Assembly (NCBI RefSeq): GCF_021054785.1
Contig: NZ_CP088239.1
Span: 930,001 to 962,000, forward strand
Length of the DNA stretch: 32,000 bases
From: Tannockella kyphosi
GTDB lineage: Bacteria; Bacillota_I; Bacilli_A; Erysipelotrichales; Coprobacillaceae
Reading direction: 5' to 3'
Of the stretch, positions 19,008 through 25,828 are shown in pieces (position 1 is the stretch's first letter; each line of letters starts with the position of its first letter). Below the pieces are notes generated by a model that saw nothing but the letters and a program-made list of their open reading frames with translations, was not told the origin of the DNA and ran no database searches. A program made the position numbers and the translations under genes.

Positions 19008-19105
19008 ACCAACATATTCTTGATAAATATTCCATAGACTTACTTGATCACTCACAAATACATGAGTCACTGGTCAATAAGTTTTCTACTTTGGATGATG
19101 GGTAG
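19008..19105 (-). pseudogene. Orphan, degenerate copy of the spoIVB 3' end (remnant B)
   Basis: Alignable to 24846-24941. It reads LPIIQSRKLID, then after a frame break PVTHVFVSDQVSLWNIYQEYV. The intact gene reads SPIIQNGKLIGAVTHVFVNNPTKGYGIFIENML. 23 of the first 29 nt are identical (hand count). Confidence 0.6.
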
Positions 19106-19134
19106 TCAAGTAAAGAACAACATTTTTATTGCAC

Positions 19135-20058
19135 CTAATCTAAGATCGATAAAAACATATCCAATCGTTCATTAATATACCCTGCAAATAACTTTTCCAT
19201 CTCACGCAAATTATGTTTTCCATGATATTCATCAAATGCATTATAATAACTTAAACGGTCAGTGAATTTAATATCAATAGGAGGAAATCCATGTTTCATT
19301 AGTTCTAAATTTACAAGCAATCGTCCACTTCTTCCATTCCCATCAATAAAAGGATAAATGGCTTCGAATTCAATGTGAAACCGTGCCATTTTTGTTGCGA
19401 TATGTTCTTCGCTCTCTTGATACTCTATCAACAATTTTTCCATTTGTGGAGTAATTAAATATGGTTGCATTGGTTCATGGTTTGCCCCTAAAATCAAAAC
19501 TGGCACTTTGCGATAAACACCTCTATCATCTTTTTTGTCAGATAACACGAGATAGTGAATTTGTTTTATGATACTCTCTGATAATGGCATATCGTCTTTC
19601 ACTAAATCTCTTCCAAAATAGAATGCTTCTCTATGCCCCACTGCTTCCATATGATCTTTTAATGGTTTTTTATCAATCGTCAGCCCGCGAAGAACCATGT
19701 CTGTTTCTCGTAATGTTAGGGTATTCCCTTCAATTGTATTGGAGTTATATGTATACTCTATTGCAAATTGCTCCATTAATCGATGTACTTCTCCTTGTGT
19801 AAGGGGTCTTTTGGCATCTAGTTCTACTTTCTTTCGGTCAATCATAGTTAACAGGCTTTCACTTGTTTTCAATCTAGCATCGATAGGTTTATGGGCTGTT
19901 TGCGGTATTCGCCAACTTCTTCCCTCTTGATATGCTCCAGATATTTTCCCCTCTGCACATAAAGTTCTTACACGTCTATCTGATATATTCCATTTTCTGC
20001 AACTTGTTTTACGTTTAAATACATATTCTTCGCTCCAATCTAATCCTATTATACCCAT
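19135..20058 (-). CDS. Fic/DOC family protein with an N-terminal HTH; active-site His replaced by Tyr
   Basis: YPFIDGNGRSGR, where Fic proteins have HPFxDGNGRxxR (codon TAT at 19354-19356). SNTIEGN block. N-terminal WNISDRRVRTLCAEGKISGAYQEGRSWRIP HTH. There is no SD before the ATG, and a TAA lies immediately upstream. Confidence 0.8.
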   Translation of the reverse strand: MGIIGLDWSEEYVFKRKTSCRKWNISDRRVRTLCAEGKISGAYQEGRSWRIPQTAHKPIDARLKTSESLLTMIDRKKVELDAKRPLTQGEVHRLMEQFAIEYTYNSNTIEGNTLTLRETDMVLRGLTIDKKPLKDHMEAVGHREAFYFGRDLVKDDMPLSESIIKQIHYLVLSDKKDDRGVYRKVPVLILGANHEPMQPYLITPQMEKLLIEYQESEEHIATKMARFHIEFEAIYPFIDGNGRSGRLLVNLELMKHGFPPIDIKFTDRLSYYNAFDEYHGKHNLREMEKLFAGYINERLDMFLSILD

Positions 20059-20059
20059 T

Positions 20060-20088
20060 TATCGGAACGATATCAATGCTATCGGAAC
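20060..20088. repeat. 9-bp direct repeat TATCGGAAC x2, 20 bp apart, abutting the Fic start codon
   Basis: Copies at 20060-20068 and 20080-20088, read directly from the sequence. Confidence 0.6.
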
Positions 20089-20154
20089 AATACAACTTTA
20101 CTCATTTATATCCATGTTAATCCAACAACATTTGTTGTTTTGGCTTATGCTTTA

Positions 20155-20209
20155 CAAAATCTATGGTATGAAATAGAACGAAGCAAAAGGCTCGTCCTAT
20201 TTCATACCA
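20155..20209 (-). terminator. Orphan terminator hairpin behind spoIVB remnant C
   Basis: Perfect 13-bp stem tggtatgaaatag (20164-20176) / ctatttcatacca (20197-20209). On the minus strand it begins 4 nt after the remnant's stop and is followed by TAGATTTTGT. Confidence 0.5.
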
Positions 20210-23141: not shown

Positions 23142-23284
23142 GATTACCTCCTGTCCTTTATAATACCTTAACACAAACTCAATAAATATGTCTATCAGTG
23201 CTAGGAATTATCTTTGACACCATTTTTACACCATCTAAAAATCACTTCTTCAATTTTTGATAAAAGAATTTCTCCAGAACCCTT

Positions 23285-24343
23285 CTATTCTTCCGTGAGC
23301 TTTTTAATTGATTGTTCTATATCTTCTATAGATGGTAGTGCACTTTCAATCTCCGTTGGTAATAGTTTTGATAATTGGTATTCTGATATTCCAATCGGAA
23401 CACTACTTGCTTCGACTGCATATTGTGCCATTACATTATCTTTTGTTTTACAAATAATAAGTCCTATCGTAGGATTATCTACATCCTTTTTTAATTGATG
23501 ATTAATAGCCACCACATAAGTCCCTATCTGACCTAAATGAGATGCATCAAATTCTCCTATTTTTAAATCTATTACAATATAACATCTTAAGTTCATATGA
23601 TAAAATAATAAGTCTACAATTACTTCTTTTTCTCCGATAACTAGTGGCTGCTGACGACCTATATATGCAAATCCTTGTCCAAGTTCTAATAAAAACTTTG
23701 TAATATTACTTGTCAATGCATCTTCTAATTCTTTTTCTCTATATCCTTCTGTCAATGTAATAAAGTCAAAATTATATGGATCTTTTATTGCCTCTTTTGC
23801 TAAATCGCTCTGAATTTCAGGTAAATGCACCTCAAAATTTGTAATTGCTTTTCCTCTTGCTGCATATAAATTTACACTCAAATAATTTAGTAGCATTGAT
23901 CTGCTCCAACCATTTTCAATTGTTTTATTCACATAAAAAATTGCTTCCTGCACATCTTTACACTTTGTCATAATTAAAATATGATGCCCCCAAGGTATCA
24001 TACATATTTGTTTTAAATCGTCAACAAGCTGTTGACGATTTTCTTCCGACAAACAATAAAACTCATAAAAACGCTTCATATATTTTAAATTAGTAACCGA
24101 AAATCCTTTGACATCAGGAAATTCTTTCTTCATTGAAAAACTCATCGTGCGATAAAATCCAATCCCCCATACGGATTCCACCTTCTTTTGAGAAATTTCT
24201 TTACCTATTTCTAAATACATTCTAATCATTTCTGTATTAACTTGAACAGCTGCCTTTAATTGACTTACATGTACTAATCGCTTTATATCGTTTATCCATA
24301 TCTGATATTCTTCATTATTTACAATTTTCAAATCATTATTCAT
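23285..24343 (-). CDS. DUF1016 / YhcG-type PDDEXK nuclease-domain protein
   Basis: 352 aa. Family-typical N-terminal half (WGHHILIM, ENGWSRSML). The C-terminal restriction-endonuclease-like core is VDLLFYH...VIDLKIGEF...GQ. Confidence 0.75.
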   Translation of the reverse strand: MNNDLKIVNNEEYQIWINDIKRLVHVSQLKAAVQVNTEMIRMYLEIGKEISQKKVESVWGIGFYRTMSFSMKKEFPDVKGFSVTNLKYMKRFYEFYCLSEENRQQLVDDLKQICMIPWGHHILIMTKCKDVQEAIFYVNKTIENGWSRSMLLNYLSVNLYAARGKAITNFEVHLPEIQSDLAKEAIKDPYNFDFITLTEGYREKELEDALTSNITKFLLELGQGFAYIGRQQPLVIGEKEVIVDLLFYHMNLRCYIVIDLKIGEFDASHLGQIGTYVVAINHQLKKDVDNPTIGLIICKTKDNVMAQYAVEASSVPIGISEYQLSKLLPTEIESALPSIEDIEQSIKKLTEE

Positions 24344-24761
24344 CTTTATTCCTTTCTCATAATATTCATTTGATCCATCGCTCTATGGTATCCCATGCTC
24401 CTTTATTACGTAGCCTTACTTTTTGTTGCTCTGCTACTGTTAAAACTCTACTTTCTGTTTTGGTCTAATTGTTTTAAATTCTTTCTCTTTTAAGTCTTTA
24501 CCCATTTCTTACCATCCTTTCAATAGAAATGGAGTAAACTAGCATGTTGTAATTATACCACCAGTTTACCCCAGAATCCAGACTTAGGAATTACCGTTTT
24601 TGCGTCTCAAAATTATTTCTTGATTTTCTTCTTTTGTTTTATGTTTCTTCATATGAAACCTCTATCATTTTTATGATATTAGTTTATAGAAATAATGGTT
24701 CTACGCTAGGTGTTTGAATAGACGCTTACATAAAAACCATTCAAAAGCTGCTACAAAAGCT

Positions 24762-24810
24762 AAGTAAAAACAAGCTAGTAGTATTAGCTACTCACTACCA
24801 GCTTGTTTTT
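24762..24810 (-). terminator. Rho-independent terminator of the intact spoIVB
   Basis: 16-bp stem aaaaacaagctagtag (24766-24781) / ctaccagcttgttttt (24795-24810), 15/16 paired, with a 13-nt loop. The 3' arm on the minus strand ends in T5. Confidence 0.7.
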
Positions 24811-24820
24811 ATTCCATAAG

Positions 24821-25828
24821 TTACTCCACACTCTCCGCCGTCTCTAACATATTTTCAATAAATATCCCATATCCCTTTGTCGGATTATTCACAAAAACAT
24901 GTGTAACGGCACCGATAAGCTTTCCATTTTGGATGATGGGTGATCCTGACATTCCTTGAATAATCCCATTTGTAGAATCCAACACAGATTCATCAACTAA
25001 TGTGAAAGTAATTCCTTTGATCCCAGTACTAGAATCACTATCTATTTCTGTAATCTCAATAAGACATTCTTGAATAGTATCATCCTCTAAAACAGTTAAA
25101 AAATATGCTTCCCCTAACTCTATTTCTTCTTTTGATGCACATTCTATAAGATCATTTGTATTGTATTCGATAGTATTAGTAATACCATAAATACCAAGAT
25201 CACTATGATATAAAACTTCTCCTAAAACATCATCTCCAATCGTTGCAAATTTTTGCCCTGCTACACTAAATGTAGCTTTTTGAATCTCTGTAACATAACT
25301 ATTATAAATAGTTCCGTTTTGTAACAAACCTAATGAAGATAAATCATCGAATGCCATTGCATGTCCTAATGCACCAAACATGTTTTCTTCAACATCAATA
25401 TAGGTTAACGTTCCAATACCCAAGACTCGATCTTTTACATACAATCCTGTTTGTAAAAGGTCATCTTGATTGGACACTTTCAACTGATGTGACAATAAGT
25501 CTCCATCCCTTAAAATAGATAGTACAATTCCCTGTGAATCAACATATAACATTTGTAACTGTTCATTAAAATCACTTATTTGCCAAATTGCAACACTATT
25601 AACAGATAAAATAATATCTCCCTCATTTAATCCATTTTCTAAAGGATTATAAGAATTATCATCTATTATAATATTATATCCTCCCGTAATAACTACTCCT
25701 GGACATTCCAATTCAATTGCAATAGATGCACCAGAAGGAATAACTGTTTTTGCATATAATGCAAAAACACTATTGAAAAGCAAAATTAAAACAATAAAAA
25801 TTGATAGAAATGATTTTTTTAAAAGCAT
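24821..25828 (-). CDS. spoIVB: SpoIVB peptidase (S55 family, PDZ plus serine protease)
   Basis: Signal/TM N-terminus, PDZ-like GDIILSVN, catalytic contexts FGALGH and GMSGSPI. Conserved position after recN. Start placed at the ATG at 25826-25828, with AGGAGG 5 nt upstream. Confidence 0.85.
   Translation of the reverse strand: MLLKKSFLSIFIVLILLFNSVFALYAKTVIPSGASIAIELECPGVVITGGYNIIIDDNSYNPLENGLNEGDIILSVNSVAIWQISDFNEQLQMLYVDSQGIVLSILRDGDLLSHQLKVSNQDDLLQTGLYVKDRVLGIGTLTYIDVEENMFGALGHAMAFDDLSSLGLLQNGTIYNSYVTEIQKATFSVAGQKFATIGDDVLGEVLYHSDLGIYGITNTIEYNTNDLIECASKEEIELGEAYFLTVLEDDTIQECLIEITEIDSDSSTGIKGITFTLVDESVLDSTNGIIQGMSGSPIIQNGKLIGAVTHVFVNNPTKGYGIFIENMLETAESVE

Follow-up and report, generated by a model that had tools for sequence, protein, structure and literature searches.

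Orphan copies of the spoIVB 3' end in Tannockella kyphosi as likely scars of successive serine-recombinase insertions into the gene

Why should a chromosome carry the end of one sporulation gene three times over, in the same orientation and with other genes in between? The question is raised by a 32,000-nucleotide (nt) stretch of the Tannockella kyphosi genome, referred to here as the window, in which the intact spoIVB gene, encoding an S55 peptidase with a PDZ domain, is followed on the minus strand by two orphan copies of its own 3' end, termed remnant C and remnant B. Comparison of the window with related loci makes it very likely that both remnants are attR scars. Elements which use large serine recombinases (LSRs) and belong to a family widespread in Clostridia would have inserted site-specifically into spoIVB twice in succession.

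The intact gene is located at 24821–25834 on the minus strand (Pfam Peptidase_S55, E 2e-62; NCBI places the start at 25828, giving 335 amino acids) and its product is 100% identical to SpoIVB of T. kyphosi, an Erysipelotrichaceae. The top repeat family of the window (D1) joins positions 24840–24895 of this gene to 20235–20290 in remnant C (80% over 56 nt, ungapped) and to 19005–19060 in remnant B (66%), and another family (D12) matches 19077–19103 to 24915–24941 at 89%. Gapped alignments gave 47/58 for the gene and C, 74/98 for the gene and B and 45/51 for C and B, the two remnants being nearer to each other than either is to the live gene end. BLASTN E-values for the copies within the window are about 1e-5. 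An nhmmer profile of spoIVB 3' ends and sites, made from other taxa only, found exactly three matches in the window (24951–24823, E 9e-28; 19102–18995, E 4e-11; 20291–20225, E 1e-9; the next one at E 3.3) and no further cryptic copies of the spoIVB end. The presence of three copies on the same (minus) strand is thereby confirmed, and the profile E-values of 1e-9 to 1e-11 for the remnants exclude a chance resemblance.

The 3' end that spoIVB now has (24821–24951) runs from the TG of the G-M-S-G-S-P Met codon to the stop codon and forms the attL side; the attR-family profile aligns to it from the crossover position (hmm 36) at 24951. Remnant C (FVNDPSQGYGIFIENML to the stop, 20213–20296, minus strand) and remnant B (18995–19105, minus strand) were delimited by repeats, translation and alignment. 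The translation of C reads SFVNDPSQGYGIFIENMLKTSQKLGN followed by a stop at 20213–20215, where the live gene has HVFVNNPTKGYGIFIENMLETAESVE before its stop, and that of B requires two frame changes and contains internal stops. An earlier note on this DNA had described three copies in one orientation, with a stop of its own in C and a broken frame in B, and on these points the repeats, the alignments, the profile from foreign taxa and the translations agree with it. The gene end of the sister species matches the three window copies at 79%, 83% and 72% over short stretches, which is uninformative as to which copy is native.

Orphan ends of this kind occur in many other genomes. We collected 80 spoIVB loci from genome representatives, most of them Clostridia, with SpoIVB proteins 33–41% identical to that of the window. 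About 15 of the 80 carry one to three extra orphan copies downstream of spoIVB (tblastn with the last 48 residues), spaced 0.4–5 kb apart, and two loci (L050 and L068) have four copies each including the gene. Thirteen of the 20 orphans start at the same place, the TG of the Met/Val codon of the catalytic-serine motif G-M-S-G-S-P, and ahead of these 13 stands a conserved sequence of 24–27 nt, TGTTGTCCC-(3–5 nt)-GACA-(1–2 nt)-CACTC-(G/A)TG. Nothing corresponding to it is present in the spoIVB gene, and it is read here as the putative element half of an attP site, hereafter the half-site. A scan of metagenome contigs with the half-site pattern gave 64 matches, about 50 of which are followed by a spoIVB fragment starting 2 nt before the end of the pattern; in nearly all of the other matches examined the start of the fragment is truncated or altered, and one is cut by the end of its contig. 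Among 2.9 million viral contigs only two chance matches were found, both inside unrelated genes. A sigma-70 -35 box, a DDE transposon end, an IS200/IS605 hairpin end, a Xer/dif site and an attC site were each considered for the motif and rejected, as its sequence, spacing and neighbouring genes do not fit them.

The shared boundary bears directly on an alternative that the earlier note had kept in view, namely that the remnants come from a second S55 paralogue, generated by tandem duplication of spoIVB and reduced by deletions. Many Clostridia do possess a second S55 protease, and one of the L050 copies reaches upstream of the usual boundary. However, in B, in C and in 13 of the 20 orphans elsewhere the homology begins no earlier than the SGSP codons; it breaks off at the codon where it does so in unrelated taxa, giving way to the element half-site, and only the last ~43 codons are ever present. 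Together with the third-position divergence described below, which argues for functional ends that evolved separately, this makes an origin from a paralogue, or from chance resemblance, hardly credible.

Decayed half-sites can be recognised in the window as well, on the upstream side of each remnant; the extents assigned to the remnants by the earlier note covered real copies but stopped short of these sequences. The one adjoining C (TTTAGTCCTTGCTTGACATAGTCG, 20297–20320, minus strand), which would be the P arm of an attR, has 3 mismatches to TGTTGTCCCNNNTTGACA and lies exactly at the junction; with that many mismatches allowed, the core pattern matches the window at just one other place. The one adjoining B (AAAAATGTTGTTCTTTACTTGACTA, about 19106–19131, minus strand) includes the best motif-only profile match in the window (19131–19115). 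As compared with intact relatives, C is short of ~55 nt (SGSP...THV) and B of ~17 nt between the half-site and the gene-derived part, and remnant B begins 2–3 codons past the family boundary.

Which enzyme acts at such a site is indicated by the related loci. In about 20 metagenome contigs, three tandem genes encoding proteins of 549, 570 and ~530 residues precede the half-site, with the last stop codon only 5–10 nt upstream of it. All three carry Resolvase, Recombinase and Zn_ribbon_recom domains (Pfam) and are thus LSRs; they were found from the open reading frames (ORFs) beside the motif and confirmed by Pfam, a jackhmmer search seeded with gamma-delta resolvase having missed them. Past the triplet follow the half-site, an orphan spoIVB end and then spo0A (L110, L140), and upstream of it are genes for a PemK/MazF toxin, XRE regulators, an ImmA-like peptidase, a sigma-like protein and a Y-family polymerase (L119, L121). 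No conjugation genes were seen within 9–14 kb at the triplet loci, where a conjugation module was not tested for specifically. The earlier note had proposed a search for related islands with intact recombinases at spoIVB; the recombinases of the family are a triplet of LSRs and not a tyrosine integrase. LSR genes stand beside the att site in these ~20 loci and are missing from the window; since the triplet is seen only in the relatives, the window would contain recombinase-free scars or cassettes and not an autonomous element. The earlier note supposed that an integrase was lost; recombinase-free cassettes are common in the family and appear to move as such, so that the window islands may never have carried a recombinase. 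A second, degenerate half-site (TGTTGTCCCTATTATAAATCACTCG) was also observed in five of the contigs (L101:7560–7600, L102, L103, L124 and L152), downstream of the last recombinase gene and ~75–100 nt upstream of the functional half-site; no spoIVB fragment follows it.

Replacement of a gene's 3' end is typical of classical tyrosine-integrase islands, such as phage 21/e14 at icd or ICESt3 at fda, and the window could in principle hold islands of that type whose int gene was lost later. One locus (L012) does have a tyrosine integrase gene convergent with spoIVB immediately past its stop codon. However, the recombinases beside the half-site are serine recombinases, and jackhmmer searches seeded with XerD and the L012 integrase detected no tyrosine recombinase in the orphan-bearing array loci, the 64 motif loci or the window, the only matches being in L003, L012 and L041. 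L012 itself has neither an orphan copy nor a half-site in 6.4 kb, and its integrase was set aside as the enzyme of the family on this ground. We regard tyrosine-integrase islands as a very improbable source of the remnants. The integrase gene of L012 (L012:1469–2665) lies ~100 nt past the spoIVB stop, direct repeats (TTTTACTAACTTTTT) are present in the spacer, and a sucrose-utilisation cluster (PfkB, LacI, GH32, PTS EIIC) follows; L012 may represent a second, unrelated element type which uses the spoIVB end. An integron, which would have an IntI-type tyrosine integrase with attI beside a cassette array with attC hairpins, was rejected too: no tyrosine recombinase is found beside the arrays, and what recurs in them is a piece of a gene together with an LSR half-site.

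The way in which the copies differ from each other provides a further line of evidence. When orphans are compared with the resident end of the same genome, 86, 42 and 281 differences fall at codon positions 1, 2 and 3, respectively, and 240 codon changes are synonymous against 79 non-synonymous ones. Since the differences are mainly at third positions, each orphan must once have been a working gene end, and the copies diverged under purifying, protein-level selection in separate lineages. Such a pattern would fit replacement ends brought in by elements, and not local duplication followed by decay. A pair of loci shows the arrangement apparently before and after such an event. In L056, a stretch consisting of the last part of the gene, the terminator, a cassette and the half-site directly continues the gene; this stretch, in L096, stands behind one extra cassette and its gene end is now an orphan.

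Empty sites, the further check suggested in the earlier note, were found among relatives. The sister lineage L090, whose SpoIVB is 58% identical, has a single copy followed by a different 8-kb stretch, after which synteny resumes at an M78-peptidase-like gene, and L001 is single-copy too. In the Erysipelotrichaceae L160/L161 and in Longibaculum (L162–L165) the order is recN-spoIVB-(210 nt)-spo0A-dinB-...-xerD, again with one copy. Among the 80 loci, spo0A lies 112–323 nt past spoIVB in about 18, as judged with a B. subtilis Spo0A query; an ORF of L015 considered as Spo0A turned out to be an alpha/beta hydrolase-like protein. In Clostridia, and in the Erysipelotrichaceae relatives too, the usual distance from spoIVB to spo0A is ~110–320 nt. 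A tblastn search did not find spo0A in the 24.8 kb that follow spoIVB in the window, and it is also absent from the 10 kb downstream in L090. Either spo0A was moved or lost in Tannockella, or further insertions separate it from spoIVB.

The precision of the junctions is best seen where one element meets different targets. LSR elements that are 89–98% identical over 6 kb are joined to spoIVB in L101–L103 and to a different gene in L128/L149, and in both cases the homology stops immediately after GTG. The secondary flank in L128/L149 (TCCGGGAGCACGGCCTTCAGGAGC) resembles the spoIVB side (TCNGGNAGCCCNATCNTTCAGGA) and the TTCAGGA half-site is retained. Similarly, L079, L099, L117 and L150 share a recombinase-free cassette for a zinc-ribbon protein whose end is identical in all four, and it is joined there to four different orphan ends which diverge from the first base after GTG. 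A sharp junction between half-site and target at the same base in independent insertions is thus found family-wide, and the window half-sites, decayed as they are, stand at the expected positions. On visual inspection, TCCCTAATGAC of the half-site appears to be mirrored by ATCATTCAGGA (codons I-I-Q-D/N), with the G-A-G of GTG/AGC as the centre; such a partial dyad symmetry would be expected of a ~50-bp serine-recombinase site. One of the cassette loci has a further peculiarity: at L117:890–1060 a second half-site with an orphan spoIVB end is inverted and faces the first, which suggests a recombinase-mediated inversion or two convergent arrays.

A third explanation is Campbell-type homologous recombination, in which RecA would recombine the highly conserved gene end with a spoIVB 3' fragment on circular or transformed DNA and so duplicate ~130 nt, with no site-specific enzyme needed for the two islands of the window. 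A repeat of ~130 nt is long enough for RecA, the array loci as well as the window lack a recombinase in cis, and the mosaic relationship of L056 and L096 shows that exchange within the repeat takes place. On such a route, however, one would not expect the 5' limit of homology to be the same base in distant taxa and always behind the same conserved half-site, nor identical cassettes to meet different orphan ends exactly after GTG and not at variable points of the repeat; moreover, the autonomous members have LSR genes at the site, and a secondary site is used which has only half-site similarity. We consider homologous recombination unlikely as the source of the window's islands, with a greater claim to attention than the two other alternatives.

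LSR-mediated insertion thus remains our preferred reading, and several observations weigh against it. Searches by tblastn and jackhmmer revealed no recombinase gene or relic in the window, whether tyrosine or serine. The C half-site is mismatched at 3 of 15 specified bases, and 0.8 such matches are expected per window; the B half-site gives a motif-only E of 1.2, weak alone, and lies directly at the B boundary. Both are weak on their own, and such weight as these candidate half-sites have comes from their position. Remnant C joins its half-site to FVN and not to SGSP, which needs either a later deletion of ~55 nt or a different junction. The mismatches between L056 and L096 are concentrated within the initial ~95 nt of the copy, from which it follows that homologous recombination or gene conversion inside the repeat also acts; such exchange could account for some of the insertions. 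Public (Logan) contigs, which are short and broken near the junctions, yielded no T. kyphosi strain without one or the other island. Finally, no complete element with both ends was recovered, and the attL of an autonomous element was not directly seen.

Taking the evidence together, the following mechanism seems plausible. The attB site would be the conserved stretch of codons that encloses the catalytic serine (G-M-S-G-S-P-I-I-Q), with strand exchange at or beside the TG/AG of ATG-AGC, ~43 codons before the stop; the exact crossover dinucleotide is likewise assigned with reserve. The earlier note was right to place the insertions at the 3' end of spoIVB, although the crossover would lie at the catalytic-serine codons and not at the very terminus. 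The attP site would comprise the half-site of 24–27 nt (TGTTGTCCC..GACA..CACTC), the element's own last ~130 nt of spoIVB and a terminator. After integration, the gene would read into the end supplied by the element and stay intact, and the displaced former end, now behind the element half-site, would be found at the far side of the cargo. Repetition of the process would stack cassettes, giving the order observed along the gene in the window: spoIVB, island 1 (YhcG, GNAT, TetR, FUSC), remnant C, island 2 (Fic) and remnant B. Recombinase-free cassettes would be moved in trans.

For the window itself, a history of four steps is the most economical, with the order of arrival and the origin of each end taken from the family pattern. 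Remnant B, read as the oldest copy, would be the ancestral end that the gene had before either insertion. A Fic-carrying unit would then have arrived with the C end and its hairpin, and after it a second unit (YhcG, GNAT, TetR, FUSC) with the present gene end and terminator. Decay of the scars would have followed, and we infer that the deletions in B and C are later than the insertions. That insertions succeeded one another with replacement ends, leaving old att junctions as remnants, had been put forward in the earlier note, and the recurrent architecture, the synonymous divergence, the L056/L096 pair and the empty sites all support it.

A terminator-like hairpin past the spoIVB stop (24765–24811, minus strand; inverted repeat I14, 18-nt arms, 94% complementary) is paralleled by one past remnant C (20164–20209, minus strand; inverted repeat I15), read as a terminator carried with the C gene end. 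The hairpin after C had been noticed before with a stem of 13 bp; it is present, with a longer stem (20164–20181 / 20192–20209, 18-nt arms, 94%). Island 1 (20321–24764, minus strand; G+C 0.30–0.38) comprises cargo genes and non-coding stretches and has no recombinase. Pfam identifies its genes as a YhcG-type PDDEXK nuclease (23285–24343, minus strand), a GNAT protein (22680–23174, minus strand), a TetR regulator (22054–22572, plus strand) and, divergent from the last, a FUSC_2 membrane protein (20986–21876, minus strand). The cargo of island 2 is an HTH-Fic protein (19135–20058, minus strand; Pfam Fic, E 2e-18). The hand count of G+C in the earlier note pointed in the right direction, the islands being richer than their surroundings, but overstated the difference: in 500-nt windows the peaks reach 0.38 (19501–20000 and 21001–21500), against 0.23–0.29 across 1–6500. 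Between the divergent TetR and FUSC_2 genes, a near-perfect 19-nt inverted repeat at 21953–21992 (ATCTGTTATAGTTGTAACA / TGTTACAACTATAACAAAT; I12) is predicted as a likely TetR operator.

The minus-strand gene order leading to the locus is xseA, xseB, ispA, dxs, a tlyA-like methyltransferase gene, recN (25884–27533) and spoIVB. Past remnant B there are two small ORFs without a family match, a DAPG-hydrolase-like gene and sulfate-activation genes. In two metagenome samples (L084:2390–2408 and L085:2218–2235), the sequence past ...AACAAAGGAGA, left of a 156-aa ORF, runs on as CCAACTATGATTTTTCAA, which is the start of the gene at the left edge of the window (~27, minus strand) and not the DAPG-hydrolase gene. 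An 18-kb block (~30–18101) with cysD/cysNC, sulfotransferase, GGDEF/EAL and glycosyltransferase/XrtG-type genes may thus be absent in some strains. Independent Logan contigs of T. kyphosi end at 24810, at 24848 and at 20315–20318, the first of these 11 nt past the spoIVB stop, the second within the repeat and the third where the C half-site has its outer edge. Strain polymorphism at the junctions was considered as a cause of these breaks and no conclusion was drawn, coverage being low and an A8 run being present at 20312–20319.

Elsewhere, the cargo between copies is varied and includes surface proteins with Cu_amine_oxidN1, LRR_5 or SLH domains, a module of KDPG aldolase, PfkB and AraC, a glycyl-radical enzyme with its activase, DUF4417 with ParB_N, a zeta-toxin-like kinase and HTH proteins. 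YhcG-like and Fic-like genes were also seen just downstream of spoIVB or beside a half-site (L071:12022–13020, L010:5983–6519 and L148:2555–3337; 26–32% identity), and the same types of cargo seem to recur at the spoIVB locus across lineages.

Elements that insert site-specifically into the 3' part of a gene, bring a substitute end with them and form tandem accretions together with non-autonomous units are established in principle, both for tyrosine integrases (phage 21/e14 at icd, ICESt3/CIME at fda) and for serine recombinases (staphylococcal cassette chromosome, SCC, at rlmH). SCC elements, including SCCmec and pseudo-SCC arrays, are integrated by LSRs at the 3' part of rlmH/orfX without inactivating the gene; they stack in tandem, and many units have no recombinase genes, are bounded by repeated integration-site sequences and are presumably moved in trans. 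The spoIVB arrays resemble SCC in LSR insertion into the 3' part of a conserved gene that is kept, in tandem stacking and in recombinase-free units. They differ in the target (spoIVB instead of rlmH) and the hosts (gut Clostridia and Erysipelotrichia), in a crossover ~43 codons from the stop with duplication of a ~130-nt end and terminator where SCC duplicates ~15–20 nt, and in a recombinase triplet where SCC has the ccrAB pair or ccrC. With phage 21/e14 and ICESt3/CIME they share the carried replacement 3' end, the displaced end left as a pseudogene fragment and the tandem accretion of non-autonomous units; those elements, however, use tyrosine integrases with core and arm sites, none of which is associated with the spoIVB arrays.

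Two further comparisons concern the target and the enzyme. In Bacillus subtilis, spoIVB is a forespore-expressed gene. Sporulation intervening elements (skin in sigK, SPbeta in spsM; skinCd, PMC5025042) are likewise LSR elements in a sporulation gene of an endospore former, but they split a mother-cell gene and are excised at sporulation to rebuild it, whereas spoIVB would be kept whole by the carried end with no excision required. Streptococcal integrative and conjugative elements with a serine integrase triplet are reported to disrupt mutT, hsdM or traG and to leave repeats of only 2–8 bp (Ambroset et al. 2016, PMC4701971). The likeness, which holds for the related loci and not for the window, lies in three adjacent LSR genes (Resolvase, Recombinase and Zn ribbon) at one extremity and in site-specific insertion into a protein-coding gene (PMC4701971). 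In contrast to them, the spoIVB elements supply a replacement end, so that the target is intact and a long orphan copy is left, and no conjugation module was seen in the fragments of spoIVB elements.

The literature searched contained nothing relevant on spoIVB as an integration target of mobile elements. The target at the catalytic-serine codons, the carriage of ~130 nt with a terminator, the non-disruptive serine triplet and the breadth of recombinase-free arrays in gut Clostridia all appear to be new. We advance one broader proposal tentatively, with slightly more doubt than belief: the catalytic-serine codons of spoIVB may anchor an SCC-like gene-capture platform across gut Clostridia and Erysipelotrichia. 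Arrays of short recombinase-free cassettes, each with an LSR half-site at its end and with genes for surface proteins, for sugar and glycyl-radical enzyme modules or of toxin and defence-like type, would be inserted, stacked and exchanged in trans by three-recombinase elements. Every event would also replace the final 43 codons of a sporulation protease that is essential.

What the window holds is, locally, a pair of decayed scars and ordinary genome archaeology, and its value is as a way in to an integration hotspot with a cassette system, both apparently undescribed. In the T. kyphosi genome it marks 19.0–24.8 kb as acquired cargo and suggests that the present spoIVB end, which came with island 1 if the order of arrival given above holds, is probably foreign. 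The half-site together with the orphan end would be a short, searchable signature for delimiting islands and dating their order of arrival, and the loci would offer natural attB/attP pairs for a triplet serine-recombinase system. More generally, the active-site codons of spoIVB would be a place, conserved on the chromosomes of spore-forming bacteria of the gut, at which mobile DNA docks, and insertions there would explain the variability of the normally tight spoIVB–spo0A junction.

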